Source: an uncultured Mycoplasmatota bacterium
GTDB taxonomy: Bacteria > Bacillota_I > Bacilli_A > RF39 > UBA660
Reading direction: 5' to 3'
Assembly: GCA_946402735.1 (NCBI GenBank)
Contig: CAMIXH010000001.1
Location: forward strand, 378,908-442,907
DNA: 64,000 nucleotides
Each line of letters starts with the position of its first letter. Position 1 is the stretch's first letter. The translations under genes were made by a program, and so were the position numbers. The notes under the pieces were generated by a model. It worked only from the letters and a program-made list of their open reading frames with translations, was not told the origin of the DNA and made no database searches. Below are positions 20,512 through 62,865 of the stretch, one piece after another.

Positions 20512-20937
20512 TTATTCTATAGTACAAGTATAACCAACTTCTTCTAAACCTTCTTTTGATTTAGTTATTGAAGATAGTTTTTCTAATTCATTATTAGTAA
20601 TCTTATCAACATTCAAATCAGAATATACATGAAGATTTTTGCTTTCAATACTTTGAGTACAATTTTCAAAAGCTTCTTTATATTGACTCATTGCATTTTG
20701 AACTACTTCACAGAAATCTTTTTGACGTAATAAATCTATTTGTTGATCAGAATATGCTGATAAATTCATATCATAAGTTAAATTCATTTTAGTGATTCTA
20801 GCACCTTTAAATGTAACATTATAACCTACATCAACACCACTTTCTGTTGCTTTACAACGAAGTACTTGTTCCTTTCCACATCCAGCTAATAATAAAAGAC
20901 CAAATACCATTAATGCACTTAAAAATAATTTCTTCAT
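20512..20937 (-). CDS. Lipoprotein of unknown function
   Basis: Starts [20 protein letters not shown] (lipobox LAGC). I trimmed the start to ATG 20937, which has AAGGAG 8 nt upstream. Confidence 0.7.
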
Positions 20938-20995
20938 AAATGATTCTCCTTCCATATTCATTTTAACATAAATTATAAAAAAAAAGAACTATTAA

Positions 20996-23817: not shown

Positions 23818-23921
23818 CATTTATTTTTTAAAAGAATAAGAAGAAATGTCTAATTTTATTCTATCTGACAACTACCAAAAGGATAAATATAATAATCAAA
23901 AGGAATATCAAAAAAGTAAAA

Positions 23922-23960
23922 ATATAAATAAAAGAATACTTATTAGAAGTATTCTTTTTT
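23922..23960 (-). terminator. Rho-independent terminator after the 1028-aa gene
   Basis: AAAGAATACTT / AAGTATTCTTT stem with a 5-nt loop and a U-rich tail, immediately after the stop at 23964. Confidence 0.7.
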
Positions 23961-23963
23961 ATT

Positions 23964-26900
23964 TTAATTCTTTTGGCAGTTTACTATGTATGTGTTACCC
24001 ACGTGACTATTTTGAGAACATGGAGTTGATGATGATTTTACACAAGAATCAACAATCCTAGTAGTCTTTGGTCCTAAGCTATATCTATATCCACATTCTT
24101 TCCAAGTTCTATTTGCTGTACATGTATATTTGTATCCACCATCAGAAGAACATACTGATTCACCACAATTATCTAAACCAGGTAAATCTTTAATAAAGGT
24201 TTCTTGATAATAAACGTGCCAATCTTCATCCCAAACTTGCTTACATTTATATTCATGTTTTGTCCAAGTACATTTATAATCTTTAACTTTGCCTATATCA
24301 GATGCAGATGAGCATGCAGCACTAGATTCTCCAGGCCAAACACAATTATTTGTATTATTTTGTTTTGAAAGCCATGTAAGGGTTTTATTACATGTTTGTA
24401 AAGTTGCAGTCCATGTTTCTTCTTTAGTACAATTACTTGTATTTCCATAATATACTGTATGACTTGATGAACTATATCCGTTTCCACAAGAAGTACAATT
24501 TTCTCCAGAGGATGCAACATGTGTATTAGCTGAACATGATATATAACATTCTGAAAGAGATGATTTTCCAGCATCACTTGTATAGTCACCATTACATTGA
24601 ACTCTTCCTTGAATACTATTTTTGTAATTATATGTTCCTCCGCCACAATAGTATCCTGCTGTACATGTTGAACATGTTGAACTATTTGCATTTAAGAATT
24701 TACCACCCGAACATGTTACATAACAACTACTTATTGTTCCAGAACCAGCGGCACTTATCATTGAACCTGGGCATTGTGTTATTCCTTGAACACTGTTTCT
24801 ATAATTATATGTTCCACCTTCGCAATAGAAACTAGCTAAACATGTTGAACATGTTGAACCATTTGCTTCTAGATATTTTCCTCTGTCACAAGATATACTA
24901 CAGCTTCCAATTGATTGAGCGCCAGCATCACTTGTCATACTTCCTGGACATTTTGTTAATCCTTGATCTGCTGTACTACTAAAGTTGAATGTTCCACCTT
25001 CACAGTAATTACCAGCTGTACATGTTGAACATGCAGAAGCACCTTTTGGTAAATATGTTCCCTTTGCACATGTTATGCTACATGCTGCTTTAGAAGTTGA
25101 TTGCTCAGGACATGTCATTGAACCAGGACATGCATCACAAGTTACTGCTCCACCTGTAGAATAATGATTTACAGTACAATTCTTGCAATCTGCAAGGCCA
25201 ATTTCATCGGCATATTTACCAGCTGCACAGTTTTTACATCCATTAGCTTCGGTTGATTTACCTGTTCCCGTTCCTTCTTTTCCAGTTGGACATCCGTGAC
25301 GATCATTTCCTCCACCACAGTAGTATCCATCTTCACATGTTGTACAATCTTCTACTTTCTTTCCGCCAGTAGAATTCCTATATGTTCCAGCTGGACAATT
25401 TGCATTATGACTTCCACCTGTACAATATTTACCAATTGGACAAGTATCACATCCTGTATTTCCTTTTGTTGTATTATATGTTCCAGCCGTACATGTTGAA
25501 CACTCTGGTGTTCCTTCATTTGCAGCATATTTTCCTTCTAAGCATTGTGAACATCCTTCTGCCTCATTTTTCTTTCCTTCGCCTGTTCCTTCAGTTCCTC
25601 GTGGACATGCAGTATGATTTGCCCCACCTGTACAATAATAACCATCTTCACAAGGTTTACATGTAGATTGACCATCTGAATCTGTGTATGTTCCTGGTGG
25701 ACATTGACCACAATCAGGAGATGTTCCATCATTAAATGTTCCAGCTGGACATGCTTCAAAATTAGCTATCATCTGTACAGTGCTATTCTTTGTTGGATTT
25801 AAATTAACAAAATATCTATTTTTAGTTTTATCATTAAATGCACTTGTTACTGTATTTGCTGTAGTTCCTGTTTTTGCAGTAGTTGTGTTTCCATTAAATG
25901 TCCATCCTGCAAATTGATGTCCTGCTTTTTTAGCATTATCTATTTCTACTACTACATCATATGTTGCACTTGTTGGATGTAGTGTTCCAAATGTTCCACC
26001 ATTCAAATTATATGTTATTGTATATGTATTTTTTGTAATACTTGCATATAAAGTATGATTTGTATCTCTAAAATCATTAGTACTACCAAGGTTTAAATTT
26101 TTTGCATTACTAGTAAAATTACCATTAGCATCAATAACTTGGACACTACCATAATAGAATCCATTAAATGTCCATCCAGTTATTGTTGGTTTTATAATAC
26201 TAGTTATTGGATGTTTTGTTTCATAATCACTATACCAGTTTGTTCTATATTTAAAGTACACTGGTTTTGGATTTGGTTGTGTTGCATATGTTTTTGTTGT
26301 ACTTCTATAATCTTTGTCAGAATCCTTTATAGCTAAATCAAATATATATGTCTTTAACTCAAAGACTGCAGTACATGTTATATCCCTTTGAATATTCTCA
26401 ACTGTATAATTATTTTCATAAATATTTGCTCCCATTTTGATAAGTTCACATTCATCTTTTCTAGTATTGTAATAATAACCATTAGCTGGTATTAAGACAT
26501 ATTGAAGTGATTCTCCAGGTCTTACATATCTTTCACCTAAAGGACTTACTGTTCCATAACTTGTGTTATTAGATATGATATCAACTGCATAACCTTCTTC
26601 AAATGTCCATGGATTAGCATATGTTCCCTTTCCGCCAAAGATTGTTCCTGGTTTTATATACTCAGTAACTCTTGTTCCTGATAAACTATCAGCACTCTTT
26701 GATTGAATATATGCATCTACATAATACTTACGATTAGATTCAGCACTAGTAAGTGTCCAATACTCTTTTCCATTTGCTAAGTAACTTTGGTTTGAGTAAA
26801 CACTTAAATCAAATTCACTCTTGCTTAAAAGTCCACCATTTATAAATGCTGAACTATCTCCAAAACCTGTTTTTTCATAAACATAGTTTTTGCCAAATAA

Positions 26901-27050
26901 AAGGTATTTTCTTCTATCTCTAAAAGTAGTGATATAGTTATTTGTTTTTGTAACAGCTTCACCATATGTAGTTACTACAGCTGCATAAACAAACACTGGT
27001 ATAATAATTAATAATAAGAATAAAAATATAAAATACTTCTTATTTTTCAT
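23964..27050 (-). CDS. Large secreted protein: signal peptide, DUF6273-like N-domain, beta-rich middle, one Listeria-Bacteroides (Flg_new) repeat, about 600 aa of Cys-rich C-x2-C repeats
   Basis: Signal peptide MKNKKYFIFLFLLLIIIPVFVYA. Flg_new unit YTITYNLNGGTFG..GHQFAGWTF. From residue 434 there are repeated CxxCxxGxY units. There is no LPXTG motif and no C-terminal TM segment. Confidence 0.8.
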   Translation of the reverse strand: MKNKKYFIFLFLLLIIIPVFVYAAVVTTYGEAVTKTNNYITTFRDRRKYLLFGKNYVYEKTGFGDSSAFINGGLLSKSEFDLSVYSNQSYLANGKEYWTLTSAESNRKYYVDAYIQSKSADSLSGTRVTEYIKPGTIFGGKGTYANPWTFEEGYAVDIISNNTSYGTVSPLGERYVRPGESLQYVLIPANGYYYNTRKDECELIKMGANIYENNYTVENIQRDITCTAVFELKTYIFDLAIKDSDKDYRSTTKTYATQPNPKPVYFKYRTNWYSDYETKHPITSIIKPTITGWTFNGFYYGSVQVIDANGNFTSNAKNLNLGSTNDFRDTNHTLYASITKNTYTITYNLNGGTFGTLHPTSATYDVVVEIDNAKKAGHQFAGWTFNGNTTTAKTGTTANTVTSAFNDKTKNRYFVNLNPTKNSTVQMIANFEACPAGTFNDGTSPDCGQCPPGTYTDSDGQSTCKPCEDGYYCTGGANHTACPRGTEGTGEGKKNEAEGCSQCLEGKYAANEGTPECSTCTAGTYNTTKGNTGCDTCPIGKYCTGGSHNANCPAGTYRNSTGGKKVEDCTTCEDGYYCGGGNDRHGCPTGKEGTGTGKSTEANGCKNCAAGKYADEIGLADCKNCTVNHYSTGGAVTCDACPGSMTCPEQSTSKAACSITCAKGTYLPKGASACSTCTAGNYCEGGTFNFSSTADQGLTKCPGSMTSDAGAQSIGSCSISCDRGKYLEANGSTCSTCLASFYCEGGTYNYRNSVQGITQCPGSMISAAGSGTISSCYVTCSGGKFLNANSSTCSTCTAGYYCGGGTYNYKNSIQGRVQCNGDYTSDAGKSSLSECYISCSANTHVASSGENCTSCGNGYSSSSHTVYYGNTSNCTKEETWTATLQTCNKTLTWLSKQNNTNNCVWPGESSAACSSASDIGKVKDYKCTWTKHEYKCKQVWDEDWHVYYQETFIKDLPGLDNCGESVCSSDGGYKYTCTANRTWKECGYRYSLGPKTTRIVDSCVKSSSTPCSQNSHVGNTYIVNCQKN
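24417..25130 (-). repeat. About four tandem 59-60-aa Cys-rich coding repeats (CPGSM..C..C..G.Y..CSTC.AG.YC.GGT.N..)
   Basis: The repeat starts at residues 641, 701, 760 and about 819 of the 1028-aa protein. The DNA periodicity creates several spurious alternate-frame ORFs. Confidence 0.8.
25146..25661 (-). repeat. Internal ~105-aa duplication within the Cys-rich region
   Basis: C(K/T)xCEDGYYCxGG..CPxGxEGTGxGK..GCxxCxxGKYA occurs at residues about 464 and about 569. Confidence 0.7.
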
Positions 27051-27120
27051 AGTATCACCTTTCTCTTACTCTACTATAAAAAATTATATCATATGTATTA
27101 TTTTCTTGCAAAACTTTTCA

Positions 27121-27153
27121 ATAAAAAAACAATGAATTATATTTCATTGTTTT
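27121..27153 (-). terminator. Rho-independent terminator after the 207-aa pseudopilin-like gene
   Basis: AAACAATGAA / TTCATTGTTT 10-bp stem, 6-nt loop and U-run. It separates the two-gene operon from the 1028-aa gene. Confidence 0.75.
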
Positions 27154-27161
27154 TGTTATTC

Positions 27162-27785
27162 TTATAATTCTATAGAAGCGTAATAATAATCTCCATTACC
27201 TCTTTCAAATACACCTATCATATAAGTAATTGGATTATTACATTTAGAAGTATCTGAATTATTATTAATATAATTACCATTACTATCTATAGTATTTAAA
27301 TCATTACATTTCTTAAGAGTTTTCATATATTCAATAGTACCATTATCATATATTTCAACTGCTTTTAATTCACCTCTTCCTTTAGGATTACCATAAACAT
27401 CTAAATCATTTAATTCATTCCTAATATTTTCAATAACATACAAATGTACAAGTCCCATATCATCAAATACTTGATTACAATCAAATAATAATTCTCCCAT
27501 TTTAGTAGTTGAACAATTATACGAACTGGTTACTTCACGATCTGCTCTAAATGATATACCTTTATGAGCTAAATTAGTGCAAGCCATTCCATAATTACAT
27601 ACATCATCAGTACCAAGTTTGCTTAAAACATAAACTAGATATTTGTCTGATGTTTTATCATATTTCTCTTTCTCTTTTGTTTTTCTAGTTACCAATGAAT
27701 AACTTGAAATAAGCATTGCAAGTGATAAAGCAACTACAACTAATACAACTATACTTTCTACAAATACAAAACCATCTTTTTTCAT
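27162..27785 (-). CDS. Pseudopilin-like protein (207 aa), Cys-containing
   Basis: Starts MKKDG-FVFVESIVVLVVVALSL (Gly-1, Phe+1, Glu+5). Its Shine-Dalgarno AGGAGG overlaps the upstream stop codon. Confidence 0.6.
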   Translation of the reverse strand: MKKDGFVFVESIVVLVVVALSLAMLISSYSLVTRKTKEKEKYDKTSDKYLVYVLSKLGTDDVCNYGMACTNLAHKGISFRADREVTSSYNCSTTKMGELLFDCNQVFDDMGLVHLYVIENIRNELNDLDVYGNPKGRGELKAVEIYDNGTIEYMKTLKKCNDLNTIDSNGNYINNNSDTSKCNNPITYMIGVFERGNGDYYYASIEL

Positions 27786-27794
27786 ATTTTCCTC

Positions 27795-29000
27795 CTAATC
27801 TCCTACTATATATGGATTATCTGCTGTTCCATTTCCAGTTATTATTCTTATATTACCATTCAATGAGATAACTGGAATAACTTCAGCAGTTTCTGTTACA
27901 TGTTTTCCTTGCATAACTCCATTATTTCCATTTACTGCAACAACTTTATTCACATTTGAAGTTGATGTAGAAAATGGTGAAGATGTCCAAAATGTTTTTC
28001 CAGATGTAAACAGATAAAAATTTCTATTAACATGAGTTAATCCAGCATGAATACCACCTAAATACATATCATCAGTATCAGTTAAATAACCACCAGCTAA
28101 TAAAACTTCATCAGCAGTTAATAAACCAACTGGATAAGATAATGTTCTATCGGTAACAGTATATCTATCATTTTGTTCTGAACAAGTAAGTGAGAAATAA
28201 TTAATCAAAGTATCTGGATTATATGGGTTAATATTTGTGTTACTCTTATATACTGGCATAATACCTTTTGCATGATAATATGTCATATCTGAAGTGTGTT
28301 TAAAATTTGTTTTATTATTACAAAATATAGTATTTTTAGATACTGCATATGTATAATCTTCTTCAATAATATTAGTAACATACCAATCATTTAATACATC
28401 TATTACATTACTATGAGTATTTACTTCATCATAACTAGGTATTCTTCCATCTTGTTCATCTACCAAACTAACCGTTTCATTATTACTAAAACTAACAGTC
28501 CCAACGCTAACATTTGGTTTATGTGCTAAATCTTTACATTTATCATCATTTGTATATCCGTCAAATACAATTCTTAAACTTCCATCTTCATTAGTTCTAA
28601 GTATTCTGAAACACATTGATGCATAAATTAAATGGTTATTTTCAACACTACCTCTAAAGAAATATATTCTATTAGATTTACCATCATTATTTTCATCAGT
28701 TAACGTATCATCACTAATATAGAATAAACCATTTCCATTTCCTTGGGAATCACTAGCTGGTCTAACCAGTTTTAATTTGTCATATGATTGTGGTGTATTA
28801 TCTTCAAGTAATTTACTTAAAGCATAACTTCTATTCTGTTTATCTTTATTAATATCATCATCTATTTGATAATTAATTGCCTCTAAGAATTTGTCTTTTT
28901 CTATATAAGTTCTTAATATAGCTAACATTAAGAACAAGAAAATGACTAAAAAAGTATATACTAAAGCCATTGAAACAAAACCATTTTTACCTTTTTTCAT
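27795..29000 (-). CDS. Pseudopilin-like protein lacking Glu+5 (401 aa) with C-terminal DUF6273-like domain
   Basis: Starts MKKGKNG-FVSMALVYTFLVIFLFLML. The C-terminus has YPVGLLTADEV, FWTSSP, VIPVISL and GNGTADNPYIV. Confidence 0.55.
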   Translation of the reverse strand: MKKGKNGFVSMALVYTFLVIFLFLMLAILRTYIEKDKFLEAINYQIDDDINKDKQNRSYALSKLLEDNTPQSYDKLKLVRPASDSQGNGNGLFYISDDTLTDENNDGKSNRIYFFRGSVENNHLIYASMCFRILRTNEDGSLRIVFDGYTNDDKCKDLAHKPNVSVGTVSFSNNETVSLVDEQDGRIPSYDEVNTHSNVIDVLNDWYVTNIIEEDYTYAVSKNTIFCNNKTNFKHTSDMTYYHAKGIMPVYKSNTNINPYNPDTLINYFSLTCSEQNDRYTVTDRTLSYPVGLLTADEVLLAGGYLTDTDDMYLGGIHAGLTHVNRNFYLFTSGKTFWTSSPFSTSTSNVNKVVAVNGNNGVMQGKHVTETAEVIPVISLNGNIRIITGNGTADNPYIVGD

Positions 29001-53305: not shown

Positions 53306-56023
53306 TTATGGTTGCCATACCCCAGCAAAATTGCTGCCTAATGAGGCTTCAATTGCTGATAATTCATTATTATTATCTACATTAACTTTTCCATATTTTT
53401 GCTTTAACATCCAATTAATAGCATTTGTTTTTCCTATAATAGCATTTTGAGTATAATGCTTAGCAATTCCAATATTTGGTAAATTAGTTAAATTAGTATA
53501 TCTAATATTACCTCTTCTTCTATAATAAGCAGTTAATTCTTTTGAAAAGTTAATAATATTAAAGTTTTCGTCATTTGAAGATATTACCCATATTGGTGTT
53601 TTTAAATCATATGGTGGAGTTGTATCACATTTATGATTATCATCTCCTCCATCTAACGCCCTATCATAAATAGTACTTGGAGTAAATGCACACCTTGAAT
53701 AAACCTTAGCAGGACTCATTGGAATTAAAACTGAGAATAGGCTTCTTTGATCATTATTATTTTTAGCTCTAATAATAACACCTTTTCCTGATTTTAATTT
53801 TGTTTTTTTACTATCACTATAATAAATACTTCTACCTAAAATACTATTATATTCTTTAACTTCTGCAGCAGTCGTTCCATATTCTTTTGCTATACTATCT
53901 AATGTAGTATTATTATCACTTGCAATGTATGTAATATGTTCTTCTAAGAATCCTAAGAATAATGTTCCATATCCTCCTTGACTACTTCCAGTAACAAGAA
54001 TATTATCAAAATCAATATTATATAATTTAATAATAGAATACATTATTTCAATAGCATTAAATATTGAATCTTCCCAGTTACATGTTGTACTAGATGGAGC
54101 AACTATTACTGCTCTAACATCAGCATTCTTATCATTATTTATTGGTTCTGTTCTATAATATAATGCTTTTTTTAAATAATGATTATTTTGCTTTTTCTCA
54201 TTTAAATCTTCTTTTTTACACTCATATCCATATCCACCATGAAGTGCAATTATTAAAGGTAATTTATCAGTTGGTGATACGTTTGGACCCACATATAAAT
54301 AGTAAGGTATTTTATTTTTATTAAAAGGATTATCAACCAATTTTTCTTTATCTTTGGATGCTTTCTTACTAAAGTAATATCCTTTTTTATTATATGTAAT
54401 GTAATTTGAATGACTAACGCTACAATTAACTGTTACTTTCTTTCCATCTTGATCTGTTATTTCAACCTTTGGATTTATTAATAAAGTAAAATTACTCGTA
54501 GCTTTATAATTACAATTAGAATTATTTTGAAGTGTTTTATTATCAGAAATAAATCTATAGTTTTTAGCTACTCCTTTTGTAACGTTAACATTTAATTTAG
54601 CAAGTCCATATCCATTTTCATATTCTCCAGTACATGTTGCTGTTATACTTGGGGTATTATCAGTTTTCTTCCATCCTGCATATAATACAGTATCGCTTTT
54701 CTTATCATATGACATATTTGATGTATTCTGTGCTGTATAGTACTGATTTCCCTTTGTATAATCTGTATTATCATACCATCCCATAAATTTATAACCACTT
54801 CTTGTTGGTATTGTAGAAGAAATTGCTGGCATAGGTTTACCTAACACAGCTTGAACATTTTTTGGAACACTACCAGAACCACCATTTATATTAAATCCAA
54901 CTGTATATTTAGTTGTTGTTACTACTTTGCTCCATCCAGCATATAGAATTAGATTTCTTTCAACATCATACGTTCTAACTGGTTTAAACTTATTATCATA
55001 GTATTGTTTTCCCTTTGTATAATTTGTATTATCATACCAACCTGTAAAAGTATATCCACTTCGAGTTGGAATAATATAATTAACTGTTGGTAGCATTTCA
55101 TCATATTTAACAGTCAAAGCGCCATACGCTTGCGTACTTTCTCCACCATTTAAATTAAAACTAATATTATACTTATTTGCTTCCCATCCAGCATACAATA
55201 TTAAATCTTCTAAAATGTCATTAATTAATTGATTTCCATTATTATCGTAATATTGTTTTCCTTTTGTATAATCTGAGTTATCATACCATCCCATGAATTT
55301 ATAACCTGTTCTATATGGTACTACACTTGAATTCAATTCAGTATTACCTTCATTATTAATACTAATTGATTTACCTTTTTCAACATTACCTCCATTTAGA
55401 TTAAATGAAACATCATATTTTTTATTTTCTACTTGTTGTTTCTTAGAGGCTTCTTTTTTCCAACCAGCATATAAAATAACATTCTTTTTTAAATCATATG
55501 ATTTTACTGGTTTACATTTATCATTATAGTATTTTGTTCCCTTTTTGTAATTTGAATTATCATACCATCCCGCAAAAACATATCCAACACGTGTTGGTAT
55601 TTCATTGCTTATAGTTTTTAATTCTTCACCATATTTAATAGATATCTTATCTTTTTGTCCACCTTCGCCACCATTTGGATTAAAAGTAATATTAAATAAT
55701 GTTTCTTTTTCAGGCTCATTTATAACAATTGATTTACTAGTCTCTGTTTCTTCTTCCCAATGTGCAAATAATGTAGTATTACCATTAAAGTCTTGATCTA
55801 AATTAATAATATTTCCTTTTGATTTATCATCAAACCAACCTACAAATCTTTTATTTTCACATGTTGGCATATCAAAAGTACAATCTAACTTTTTGTTTTT
55901 TACATCACATATATGTTCTTCTAAACCTGAGCAATTATTAACAAATAATACTATTGTTCTTTCACAGCCACAGTTAATTAGACAAACTGCCATAATTATA
56001 AATATAAATATTACTTTTTTCAT
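53306..56023 (-). CDS. Secreted multi-repeat protein: Listeria-Bacteroides (Flg_new) repeats plus C-terminal alpha/beta-hydrolase (esterase) domain with a LysM-like insert
   Basis: Signal peptide MKKVIFIFIIMAVCLINCGC. Repeated F/YxxNGG...GYxFxGWYD..LYAGW units. LIIALHGG and the nucleophile elbow GSSQGG. LysM-like segment TLDSIAKEYGTTAAEVKEYNSI. I trimmed the start to ATG 56023. Confidence 0.75.
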   Translation of the reverse strand: MKKVIFIFIIMAVCLINCGCERTIVLFVNNCSGLEEHICDVKNKKLDCTFDMPTCENKRFVGWFDDKSKGNIINLDQDFNGNTTLFAHWEEETETSKSIVINEPEKETLFNITFNPNGGEGGQKDKISIKYGEELKTISNEIPTRVGYVFAGWYDNSNYKKGTKYYNDKCKPVKSYDLKKNVILYAGWKKEASKKQQVENKKYDVSFNLNGGNVEKGKSISINNEGNTELNSSVVPYRTGYKFMGWYDNSDYTKGKQYYDNNGNQLINDILEDLILYAGWEANKYNISFNLNGGESTQAYGALTVKYDEMLPTVNYIIPTRSGYTFTGWYDNTNYTKGKQYYDNKFKPVRTYDVERNLILYAGWSKVVTTTKYTVGFNINGGSGSVPKNVQAVLGKPMPAISSTIPTRSGYKFMGWYDNTDYTKGNQYYTAQNTSNMSYDKKSDTVLYAGWKKTDNTPSITATCTGEYENGYGLAKLNVNVTKGVAKNYRFISDNKTLQNNSNCNYKATSNFTLLINPKVEITDQDGKKVTVNCSVSHSNYITYNKKGYYFSKKASKDKEKLVDNPFNKNKIPYYLYVGPNVSPTDKLPLIIALHGGYGYECKKEDLNEKKQNNHYLKKALYYRTEPINNDKNADVRAVIVAPSSTTCNWEDSIFNAIEIMYSIIKLYNIDFDNILVTGSSQGGYGTLFLGFLEEHITYIASDNNTTLDSIAKEYGTTAAEVKEYNSILGRSIYYSDSKKTKLKSGKGVIIRAKNNNDQRSLFSVLIPMSPAKVYSRCAFTPSTIYDRALDGGDDNHKCDTTPPYDLKTPIWVISSNDENFNIINFSKELTAYYRRRGNIRYTNLTNLPNIGIAKHYTQNAIIGKTNAINWMLKQKYGKVNVDNNNELSAIEASLGSNFAGVWQP
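54671..55915 (-). repeat. One partial and four full ~85-aa Flg_new-type coding repeats
   Basis: The units end in LFAHW, LYAGWKK, LYAGWEA, LYAGWSK and LYAGWKK. Confidence 0.8.
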
Positions 56024-56111
56024 ATAATACACTTCCTATCATACAATACAAGTATATAGCAATAATCATATTTAAGCAAATAAAAAAGCATTATTTTATA
56101 ATACTTTTTTG

Positions 56112-60033: not shown

Positions 60034-62865
60034 TTATTGCTTTGTTTGACTAATTAACCATTCTAGAATATCAGACTTACCATCTGAATTTTTATCAATA
60101 CTAAATGCATAATCGGTTACATCGCTATGACACATTTCACCTACATTTGTAAAATCACTTTTTCTACCTAAATATGTAAATAAATCTTCCATATTTCTAG
60201 CAGCATTCCATCCACTTGTAGTACCGGTACATCGTTTCCCATTAACCCAAGTAGAAGTTGAAGTTGTTTCTCCATATCCTTTCATTGGAATCATTTTAAA
60301 GTAATTATAATTGTTTTTTATTACATTAGAACTACTATCATGTCCTGTACTAGTAGATAAAATAGCACTAAATAAGTCTTTATTCTCAGCAACAAAGTTA
60401 TACATATACCATCCACCTGTACTACATCCTGTTACTGATATTTTATTCTTATTTATTTTATATTTATCAACTATATCGTTAATATGCTTTCTTAAACTAG
60501 TACTCCAACTACCACCATAACTTATATTAGGTAAATATATAAATACTTTTGATTTTATATAAATTGATGTACCTGCAGTTAATCTATTAACATCTAATGA
60601 AACAGCATAATCAGATGCTGGTATAAATACAAGCATAGGCATATTCTCTACTGCATTTTTCGGAATATAAAGGTTATCTTTATAGACACTATCATTTTGA
60701 AAATAAGTTGATTTAAGACCACTTTCTACATTTAATGGTTTGTCTTCATAGACTGTTACTTTTACTGTAACTTTTTTATCACTATTATCCTTAGACTTTG
60801 CTGTTATTGTAGCAGTACCATTTTTACTCTTTGAAGTTATTTTTCCATTAGAATCTACTGAAGCTATACTAGTATCACTACTTGAATATATAACTTGTTT
60901 ATTTGTAGCATTTGTTGGTAAAACAGTTACATCCCATTGGAAAGTTTTATTATACTTTAAAGTTTTAGTTGTTACATCTGTTGATAATTTAGTAACTGGA
61001 ATAGTTTTAACATTAACAGTTATAGTTTTACTATCTGTTAAATTTGGATTACTAACAGATTTAACAGTTATTTTAGCACTACCAGATTTTATAGCACTAA
61101 CTACTCCATTTGAATCTACTACAGCAACACCAGTATTACTACTAGACCATGTTACCTTTTTATTTGTTGCATTATCTGGAGTTACTGTTGCTGATAATGT
61201 AATATTATCGCCTTCATAAACAGAATAAACATTACTATTAATCTTAACACTTGTTACATCAACAGTCTTTTTATTAACAGTTATTTTAACAGAGGCAGTT
61301 TTATTGTTATATGTACTTGCTGTTATAGTAGCGCTACCTTTTTTCTTAGCAGTTACTTTTCCATTAGAATCAACCGTTGCTACGCTAGTATCACTACTAG
61401 ACCATGTAACACTTTTATTTGTTGCATCTTGTGGTACATATGTAACAACAAGTGAAAACTTATCTTCTTCTATTAAAGTCTTGCTTGATGTATTTAATGA
61501 TATGCTACTTACTTCAATAACTTTTGCTTTAACTGTTACTAAAACTTCACTTTTAATATTCTTATTACTTACACTTGTAATTATTATTTTAGTTTTACCA
61601 GATTTCTTAGCAGTAATTACTCCATTACTATTAATAGTAGCAATACTACTATCTTCACTAGTATATTTAACTATTTTATTAGTAGCGTCACTTGGATTAA
61701 CATTAACTATTAAAGTTTTAGTATCTCCTTCTGTTAATTTAATATTATTTTCTTTTACTACAATTGATTTAACTTCTACTATTGGAGTTGGTTTTATCGG
61801 TGTTTCTTTTTTACTAACTACTACTATACAAGTATTTTTCTTATTGTTAGCACTTGCTGTTATGGTTACTTTACCAGCTTTTAATGCTTTAATGTTTCCA
61901 TCTTGATCAATACTTGCAATACTAACATCTGAACTAGTAAACTTAACCGGAATGTTAGCACTTAATTTAGTTGTTTCTCCTACTTCCATTTCGATATTAT
62001 AATTACTTAGAATAATCTTTTCTTCTTCATTAACATATACTGTTATTTGAGAGTTTATTTCATCATCAGATTTAACACTAATGATTGCATATCCTTTTGA
62101 TATAGCAAATACTGTTCCGTTTGAATCTACTTTTGCAACACTAGTATCACTACTAGACCATTCTAGTTCCTTTTGACTAGCATTACTTGGAACCACATTA
62201 ACACTAAGAGTTTTCTTTTCTCCAACATTTAGATTTAATTCATTTTCATTTATATTTATTTCTTCTATTTTTATGTCAGTTGCTATAACAGTAATTTCTA
62301 CACTATTAGAAGCATCCCCATTAGTAACAGTAATATGTGTTTTTCCTTCTTTTATACCAGTTACATTACCATAGGCGTCTACTTTAGCTATTGTTTCATC
62401 TTCACTTTTATATGTTAAATAAGTACTTATATTATCTTGATTATTAACTTTAACATTTATTTTTTTAGTATCATTAACATTAACACTAAAATTCCCTTCA
62501 AGTTCTAAATCTGTTACTTCAACATTAACTACGCTTATTGCTAGTTTTTGTTTACCTATTCCATTTTTAAATCTTACTGATACTTCAGAATTACCTTGTT
62601 TTAATGCTTTTATCTCACCATGATCATTAACTTCTATTATATTCTTATCTTTAGAACTAAAGATATAATTATCATAATCAAACTTTTCAACATTTGAAGG
62701 AATTATCTTCATTTGATAAGAACTACCAACATCTAATGTTACTTCTTCTTCCATTAAATAAATACTATATGAATCAGTATAAAAAAAGTATATTCCATAT
62801 ATTAATAATAAAACTACGAATACATAAAAAATAATTGTTAATATTTTCATTACCTTTTTATTCAT
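60034..62865 (-). CDS. Membrane-anchored surface protein: about eight Big_2 (bacterial Ig-like) domains plus C-terminal alpha/beta-hydrolase (esterase) domain
   Basis: N-terminal TM segment. Repeated ..L.VGE...L...V.P..A.N..V.WSSSD.S(V/I)A.VDSNG.V.A...G.A.IT units. The C-terminus has PMLVFIP and the nucleophile elbow GCSTGG. Confidence 0.8.
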   Translation of the reverse strand: MNKKVMKILTIIFYVFVVLLLIYGIYFFYTDSYSIYLMEEEVTLDVGSSYQMKIIPSNVEKFDYDNYIFSSKDKNIIEVNDHGEIKALKQGNSEVSVRFKNGIGKQKLAISVVNVEVTDLELEGNFSVNVNDTKKINVKVNNQDNISTYLTYKSEDETIAKVDAYGNVTGIKEGKTHITVTNGDASNSVEITVIATDIKIEEININENELNLNVGEKKTLSVNVVPSNASQKELEWSSSDTSVAKVDSNGTVFAISKGYAIISVKSDDEINSQITVYVNEEEKIILSNYNIEMEVGETTKLSANIPVKFTSSDVSIASIDQDGNIKALKAGKVTITASANNKKNTCIVVVSKKETPIKPTPIVEVKSIVVKENNIKLTEGDTKTLIVNVNPSDATNKIVKYTSEDSSIATINSNGVITAKKSGKTKIIITSVSNKNIKSEVLVTVKAKVIEVSSISLNTSSKTLIEEDKFSLVVTYVPQDATNKSVTWSSSDTSVATVDSNGKVTAKKKGSATITASTYNNKTASVKITVNKKTVDVTSVKINSNVYSVYEGDNITLSATVTPDNATNKKVTWSSSNTGVAVVDSNGVVSAIKSGSAKITVKSVSNPNLTDSKTITVNVKTIPVTKLSTDVTTKTLKYNKTFQWDVTVLPTNATNKQVIYSSSDTSIASVDSNGKITSKSKNGTATITAKSKDNSDKKVTVKVTVYEDKPLNVESGLKSTYFQNDSVYKDNLYIPKNAVENMPMLVFIPASDYAVSLDVNRLTAGTSIYIKSKVFIYLPNISYGGSWSTSLRKHINDIVDKYKINKNKISVTGCSTGGWYMYNFVAENKDLFSAILSTSTGHDSSSNVIKNNYNYFKMIPMKGYGETTSTSTWVNGKRCTGTTSGWNAARNMEDLFTYLGRKSDFTNVGEMCHSDVTDYAFSIDKNSDGKSDILEWLISQTKQ
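60748..62754 (-). repeat. Eight tandem ~80-85-aa Big_2 coding repeats
   Basis: Units start near residues 38, 118, 198, 284, 365, 450, 535 and 622. The DNA-level similarity produces a long spurious antisense ORF. Confidence 0.8.

Follow-up and report, generated by a model that had tools for sequence, protein, structure and literature searches.

We describe a gene in a 64-kb stretch of DNA (the window) from an uncultured Mycoplasmatota bacterium (contig CAMIXH010000001.1, positions 378,908 to 442,907; assembly GCA_946402735.1). According to the open reading frame (ORF) list and its translation, the minus-strand ORF 23964..27050 encodes the 1028-amino acid (aa) protein P0001 plus stop. We read this product, hereafter the giant protein, as a Sec-exported, non-anchored, multi-domain surface fibril protein of a Bacilli-type ruminant-gut bacterium with a GC content of about 26%, and give this reading a probability of roughly 55%. 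The protein carries a rod of a known fold family, its ancestry is bacterial and native, it belongs to a modular family and its conservation declines from the N- to the C-terminus. The module is a known one in a new bacterial form, and the modular, pilus-linked family to which it belongs is undescribed in the literature searched: searches pairing Ephrin_rec_like or GCC2_GCC3 with bacteria gave no paper on such a bacterial family.

The gene and its parts are as follows, with the basis of each assignment in brackets.

23964..27050, minus strand: whole gene P0001, 1028 aa (ORF list and translation)
26982..27050, minus strand: Sec-type signal peptide, aa 1-23, MKNKK plus hydrophobic core plus VYA/A (sole segment with Kyte-Doolittle hydropathy >1.6)
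26595..26981, minus strand: conserved N-terminal module, aa 24-152, ANNYI..EYWTL..G.GTYANPW motifs, DUF6273-like (profile comparison)
25752..26594, minus strand: beta-rich domains, aa 153-433, putative InlB B-repeat at the end (AlphaFold confidence score pLDDT ~90-97)
24429..25751, minus strand: cysteine-rich rod, aa 434-874, predicted Ephrin_rec_like / TNFR-type modules (motifs, repeats, Pfam, fold)
23967..24428, minus strand: C-terminal cysteine (Cys)- and Trp-rich knob, aa 875-1028, 154 residues, 12 Cys (lineage-specific, fast-evolving)

Architecture of the giant protein

The signal peptide of the giant protein is kept in its orthologues. Neither a lipobox Cys nor a prepilin G-F-T-L-x-E motif is found at the N-terminus, the protein contains no LPXTG motif and no transmembrane segment, and no hydrophobic segment lies past residue 30. 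An earlier note on this DNA had called the protein secreted, and the Sec-type signal peptide followed by no second hydrophobic segment bears this out. A 99% identical protein, P0002, is present in an independent ENA assembly.

Cysteines are concentrated in the C-terminal part: 61 of the 63 in the whole protein fall within aa 434-1028 (10.3% Cys versus a mean of 1.0% over 18 background genes), and the probability of at least 61 falling there by chance is P = 6e-41. Residue 434 corresponds to nucleotide (nt) 25751 and the final codon ends at 23967. The coordinates 23967-25751 proposed earlier for the Cys-rich part are exact on the ORF, as is the description of everything from residue 434 to the C-terminus as dominated by Cys-rich units.

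The rod comprises 441 residues with 49 Cys, including C874 at its C-terminal edge (48 if C874 is counted with the knob), and contains all 13 CxxC units of the protein. Nine of the 13 fit the strict pattern C-x2-C-x2-3-G-x-[YF]; the remaining four are degenerate (CKNCTVNHY, CDACPGSM, CSTCLASFY and CTSCGNGY). The count of 12 C-x2-C-x2-3-G-x-Y units in the earlier note depends on the definition adopted. The nested repeats that the note described are also present, as units spaced 177/180 nt (59/60 aa) at 24595-25082 and as direct repeats with 315-nt (105-aa) spacing at 25307 and 25622, the 105-aa duplication being partial (53% identity over 64 residues, second copy truncated). Repeat units are about 70% identical in DNA and 47-63% identical in protein. 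Because Tandem Repeats Finder detects no recent DNA-level array in the gene, the repeats are old and diverged. Metagenome contigs yielded no trustworthy repeat-number joints, the three candidates having sides of 21-39 nt and low depth.

Several lines of evidence agree in predicting that aa 434-874 form an Ephrin_rec_like / TNFR-type cysteine ladder. The Pfam model PF07699 Ephrin_rec_like (GCC2_GCC3) matches the giant protein in five stretches with 20.8 bits (E 3.3e-4), marginally below the gathering score of 23.1. Relatives that align to aa 434-640 with 34-47% identity (E 1e-32 to 1e-165) pass the threshold, namely P0046 (139.6 bits), P0069 (131.9 bits), P0003 (115.3 bits) and P0117 (48.6 bits). 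An AlphaFold2 model built from 57 sequences gives aa 434-874 a pLDDT of about 94. Searched against PDB with Foldseek, the rod matches MST1, the Chlamydomonas mastigoneme protein, first (E 5.6e-14, 16-23% identity) and ELAPOR1 next (E 4e-5), followed by 4-1BB/TNFR, the EphB2/EphA2 ectodomains and the CaSR Cys-rich domain. A phmmer search against PDB sequences likewise returns MST1 (4e-9) and ELAPOR1 (5e-5). Taken together, the Pfam stretches, the scores of the relatives and the MST1, ELAPOR1 and Eph matches uphold the earlier assignment to the Ephrin_rec_like/GCC2_GCC3 kind, and a disulfide stalk or adhesin, as then suggested, is the most reasonable reading of the predicted rod.

MST1 (PDB 8wa2, 8tx1, 9b4h) resembles the giant protein in having long unbroken runs of growth-factor-receptor/TNFR-type CxxC modules that form an extracellular rod after tandem beta domains. 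It differs in being eukaryotic and glycosylated, in its nine immunoglobulin-like domains and polyproline tail and in its polymerization, and the identity is only 16-23%. In MST1, a Cys-rich domain of 678 residues makes a 26-nm rod with 26 disulfides (PMC11015965); scaling from these values, the rod of the giant protein may be about 17 nm long with about 24 disulfides. The other PF07699 proteins (ELAPOR1, Eph receptors, MEGF6, SVEP1) share the CxxC...GxY module, whereas in the giant protein it stands in a bacterial setting (Flg_new, DUF6273-like, pilin).

Giardia variant-specific surface proteins (VSPs), which had been named as a second possible type, can be set aside: no match to the VSP (PF03302), furin-like or GF_recep models is found at E<=1, and the giant protein has no C-terminal membrane anchor or transmembrane helix. 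Many CxxC motifs, an extracellular place, variability and an anaerobic gut setting are common to both, but VSPs have a C-terminal transmembrane segment with a conserved tail and a different module spacing.

Ahead of the rod, Pfam PF09479 Flg_new (InlB B-repeat) matches aa 343-401 (nt 25848-26024) with 24.8 bits against a cutoff of 27, and Flg_new is recorded for the orthologues P0005 and P0006. Fold search with the N-terminal half returns weak and generic matches to Gram-positive adhesin stalks (YwfG, BaTIE, InlB B-repeat). Bead-on-string adhesins of the InlB/MucBP kind, such as YwfG and InlB, resemble the giant protein in having tandem beta domains after a signal peptide, with Flg_new among them (a putative one in the giant protein). 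They are almost free of Cys and carry LPXTG, GW or LysM anchors, whereas the giant protein contains the 441-aa cysteine rod and lacks any known anchor.

Both ends of the mature protein are rarer. The N-terminal module is present in just 14 of 5.8 billion proteins searched; it gives no direct match to Pfam DUF6273 (PF19789), and aa 24-133 are poorly modelled by AlphaFold. The knob, with a pLDDT of 30-60, found three representative matches among 1.84 billion proteins. Outside the orthologues it is essentially without relatives, and hidden Markov models of the knob stopped short of the C-termini in the pilin-type relatives. One of the three, a MucBP-repeat protein, owed its score to 13 weak repeat matches summed and is regarded as spurious.

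Bacterial ancestry and modularity of the family

The coding region of aa 434-1028 has a GC content of 36.9% against a background of 26%, and its amino acid composition alone predicts 35.9%. Its third-position GC (GC3) is 11.8%, compared to 9.8% for the background, and in its use of synonymous codons it agrees with the genome. Querying with aa 434-1028 returned 882 proteins; those at the top come from Bacilli, from a Clostridium-labelled genome and from metagenome-assembled genomes of Alphaproteobacteria. Uncultured gut bacteria supply the nearest relatives (36-53% identity), and the named eukaryotic matches, with identities of 24-31%, have lower scores (echinoderms, fish MEGF6/notch-like proteins, oomycetes, ciliates). 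A scan of genome contigs with a narrower alignment gave five loci, the window's own genome not among them, in a sheep-rumen Bacilli metagenome-assembled genome, the Clostridium-labelled one and gut Alphaproteobacteria.

The bacterial relatives fall into two classes, those with a Sec signal and the N-terminal module of the giant protein and those with a prepilin N-terminus followed by Flg_new and the rod. Eight relatives have a prepilin motif (KKGFTLIE) ahead of Flg_new and the rod; P0003 and P0010 pass PF07963, and P0012 reaches 20.5 bits, just below the cutoff of 21.2. These rod-bearing prepilin relatives are modular type IV pilins as Raynaud et al. (PMC8179133) use the term. The giant protein itself lacks the class III signal G/F-T-L-x-E and the PF07963 helix, its N-terminus being of Sec type.

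The N-terminal module is also fused to BspA-type leucine-rich repeats (LRRs) in P0127 and to a rod ending in PT-HINT in P0117, and because of these combinations it appears to behave as a carrier for interchangeable effectors. The same logic of carrier plus effector module is found in the modular minor pilins PilB/PilC of S. sanguinis and in PilC/PilY1 (PMC8179133). In the giant protein the non-pilin N-terminal module takes the carrier position, beside minor-pilin-like genes. It differs from modular pilins and PilY1 in having a Sec rather than a class III signal and no PilY1 beta-propeller; Pfam finds no match to the PilC/PilY1 beta-propeller (IPR008707) in the giant protein, and the resemblance is by analogy only.

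Three loci illustrate the range of arrangements. One (L009, 2882-8772) joins the N-terminal carrier module and Flg_new to BspA-type LRR_5 with no cysteine rod, in two adjoining genes. The P0117 locus (L008, 6001-11216) encodes N-terminal module, rod and PT-HINT in one protein, which is followed by a candidate immunity protein, membrane-anchored and 221 aa long. The third (L007, 3-11634) holds tandem giant Cys-rich paralogues, each followed by an N-terminally anchored paralogue of about 272 aa, just 5' of ftsA and ftsZ.

Compared with the orthologues P0005 and P0006, identity falls from 90-95% in the N-terminal module to 81-85% in the beta domains, 55-62% in the rod (441 aa long in the giant protein, 330 or 403 aa in the orthologues) and 36-39% in the knob. 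A conserved base with a variable tip fits a layout of cell-proximal carrier and distal recognition end, and we infer a carrier role for the conserved N-terminal module and a binding or antigenic role for the fast-evolving knob at the distal end. In such a layout the N-terminal module would lie near the cell, the rod would act as a rigid, protease-resistant spacer and the knob would be the variable far end. The pattern suggests recognition of a host or partner in the rumen.

Pilin-like neighbours and competing explanations

Two pilin-like genes lie immediately upstream of the giant gene, which has promoter- and terminator-like sites on its flanks.

27795..29000, minus strand: 401-aa pilin-like protein without Glu5 (KNG/FVSMA), C-terminal DUF6273-type domain (sequence, family comparison)
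27162..27785, minus strand: 207-aa pilin-like protein, KKDG/FVFVE, Glu5 present (sequence; weak NCBIfam ComGE/ComGF/ComGD N-terminal matches)
27120..27160, minus strand: terminator-like AT-rich hairpin plus U-run after the 207-aa pilin-like gene (-12.2 kcal/mol, z -4.29 versus shuffles)
27083..27111, minus strand: promoter-like TTGCAA-17-TATAAT with TG extension, 33 nt 5' of the ATG (consensus scan 10/12, pattern match only)
23930..23958, minus strand: terminator-like hairpin plus U-rich tail directly past the stop codon of the giant gene (-10.5 kcal/mol, z -4.22 versus shuffles)

It is a real possibility, which we nevertheless place short of even odds, that the carrier docks on this adjacent minor-pilin-like pair and that the giant protein is displayed on a type IV filament. 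Docking on the 401/207 pair would have a parallel in PilY1, a non-pilin adhesin carried by minor pilins, and the sister proteins would reach the same display by direct fusion of rod and pilin. The 401-aa protein belongs to a family of 125 members, the distant ones matching DUF6273 at 24-29 bits against a cutoff of 23.5. In an hhalign profile comparison, aa 81-150 of the giant protein pair with residues 320-399, where this family ends C-terminally, at a probability of 94.6% (E 6.7e-8). The shared module is visible by profile comparison only, BLASTP of the 401-aa neighbour against the giant protein giving nothing significant.

Gene order points in the same direction. The 401/207 pair is conserved in L011, L012 and L013, and the giant gene adjoins it in the window as well as in L011 (order 1183-399-207) and on the contig of P0006 (order Lon-401-207-992-PDZ-RadC). 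Genes for T2SSF and prepilin peptidase are found close to a paralogous set, 999-398-215. The contigs of GCA_016648615.1 were read from gene tables. With the P0121 locus left out, the loci examined for N-terminal-module proteins show pair and giant gene side by side four times: in the window, in L011, on the P0006 contig and at the P0118 locus.

In several related genomes the conserved pair sits between lon and a SepM-like PDZ protease/radC, whether or not the giant gene is beside it. The ~400-aa member, without Glu5 and with a C-terminal domain of DUF6273 type, has the motif KNGF[IV]SM[AT]LVY, and the ~207-aa member starts with KKDGFVF[VM]ES. The latter is larger in L013, where it has 417 aa and 12 Cys.

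A number of observations weigh against our reading of the giant protein. Its own Ephrin_rec_like score falls under the gathering score, and both its N-terminal module and its knob are poorly modelled. Its Cys total is odd (63), and the gut habitat of the source organism is strongly reducing. No gene with the sizes or features of the pair adjoins the giant gene in L007, L008, L009 or L010, and L012 and L013 hold the pair at the same syntenic site without the giant gene. Because the giant gene has its own promoter-like site and a terminator-like hairpin lies between it and the pilin pair, it is not obviously co-transcribed with the pair. Pilin-like genes are, moreover, densely scattered in the window, and the adjacency could be a matter of chance. 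There are six of them in the 64 kb, with Cys counts per length of 7/158, 9/359, 5/264, 6/207, 4/401 and 0/148; the earlier note's remark that the pilin-like proteins of the window are Cys-rich holds for five of the six as far as the presence of Cys goes.

One alternative is that the giant protein stands alone as an adhesin or fibril, secreted or associated with the wall, that has no type IV pilus link and whose pilin-like neighbours are there by chance. In its favour are an own promoter-like site and flanking terminator-like hairpins, the pair occurring alone in L012 and L013, several N-terminal-module relatives with no adjoining pair, and six pilin-like genes spread over the window. We consider this explanation somewhat unlikely. 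Three gene orders bring the giant gene and the pair together, one of them the paralogous set by T2SSF and prepilin peptidase, the N-terminal module resembles the C-terminal domain of the 401-aa member in profile comparison, and relatives fuse the rod to true prepilins.

A second alternative concerns the chemistry of the rod. The CxxC modules may hold metal ions (zinc or iron) instead of disulfides, on the premise that the gut lumen is too reducing for some 24-30 disulfides. In Giardia VSPs, CxxC modules have been reported to bind metal ions. Samples of ruminant gut are the source of the organism, and the 64-kb window, whose genes are mostly housekeeping apart from two other large surface proteins, contains no thioredoxin-like CxxC protein, no oxidase gene and no pilus machinery. 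Aerobic Firmicutes usually exclude Cys from exported proteins, and the study reporting this describes no disulfide-forming system in Firmicutes (PMC2823432); the present lineage is unusual in this respect, which keeps metal coordination alive as a rival, as does the odd Cys total. Against it, the solved relatives MST1, ELAPOR1 and TNFR are disulfide ladders, and Cys counts in the family lean toward even numbers (31/46, p=0.026). On balance, metal binding in place of disulfides is improbable.

The giant protein might also be a mastigoneme-like, self-assembling hair whose rods would pair antiparallel and polymerize with no pilus. MST1 is the best match in both sequence and fold, its Cys-rich domain makes an antiparallel dimer and filament strands (PMC11015965), and one unpaired Cys in the giant protein could form an intermolecular bond. 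With MST1 identity at just 16-23%, many receptors using the same fold as a plain spacer and no polyproline tail in the giant protein, such an assembly appears decidedly improbable.

A role as a polymorphic toxin or contact-dependent competition protein, with the knob as payload, would fit the hypervariable C-terminus, the PT-HINT end of P0117 (same N-terminal module and rod, then a small membrane protein) and the L007 giant paralogues, each trailed by a 272-aa membrane-anchored paralogue. We regard it as very unlikely, since Pfam finds no HINT or toxin domain in the giant protein, the 164-nt downstream gap holds no immunity-like ORF, and the 12 Cys of the knob better fit an extracellular binding domain than a translocated toxin.

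Recent acquisition of a eukaryotic gene fragment for host mimicry, the suggestion of the earlier note, is hardly credible despite a literature in which Ephrin_rec_like is overwhelmingly eukaryotic and bacterial copies are treated as rare transfers (PMC6993872), and despite 25 named eukaryotic proteins among the top 120 matches, because GC3 and codon use are native and the closest relatives bacterial, because the rod sits between bacterial-only modules (Flg_new, DUF6273-like, prepilin), and because mammalian proteins give no close match. An ancient inter-domain transfer of the rod is possible.

Distribution, implications and minor observations

Several studies have produced gut metagenomes, bovine and other, that contain near-identical contig pieces of the gene. 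In bovine samples, the window segment 26300-26910 is represented by two N-terminal alleles, one nearly identical and the other about 10% different, and their presence in the same samples suggests co-existing strains or alleles. In a sheep gut metatranscriptome both the giant gene and the 207-aa gene are represented by pieces, among them, for the latter, one of 249 nt that shows 0 differences; with low depth and possible carry-over of DNA, these pieces are a hint that both genes are expressed.

Rods of the Ephrin_rec_like/TNFR type, held to be eukaryotic with stray bacterial copies (PMC6993872), form a sizeable native family in gut bacteria. A protein needing a predicted 24-30 disulfides or so in an anaerobic low-GC Firmicute runs counter to the pattern of cysteine exclusion (PMC2823432), and such a Cys load points to an unstudied oxidative-folding capacity or to metal-based stabilization. 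The placing of one effector rod on either a pilin or a non-pilin carrier widens the carrier-plus-effector picture of type IV pilus adhesins, which thereby reaches a new module and a little-known bacterial lineage.

A more far-reaching proposal, which we consider doubtful as a whole, is that uncultured gut Bacilli use the eukaryote-type cysteine rod as the standard shaft of type IV appendages, either fused to a pilin or on a new, non-pilin DUF6273-like carrier docked to a conserved minor-pilin pair, and that the rods may self-associate in the manner of algal mastigonemes. If true, extensive extracytoplasmic disulfide chemistry would take place in an anaerobic Firmicute, contrary to the cysteine-exclusion rule, and the rod family would mark an old exchange of modules between bacteria and eukaryotes.

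A few minor features of the window complete the description. On the opposite strand, a promoter-like CTGACA-17-TATAAT (11/12 matches; 23865-23893, plus strand) is aimed into the 3' end of the giant gene, and a plus-strand ORF of 71 codons (23846..24061) that overlaps the end of the gene is probably spurious. A 149-aa predicted lipoprotein (20512-20961, minus strand; lipobox LLAGC, 5 Cys, no Pfam family) is encoded between rnhB and L27/Prp/L21. The two other large surface proteins are a 908-aa exported protein whose N-terminus is lipoprotein-like and which contains 15 Cys and four Flg_new repeats (53306-56032, minus strand) and a 943-aa exported protein with seven Big_2 domains (60034-62865, minus strand).

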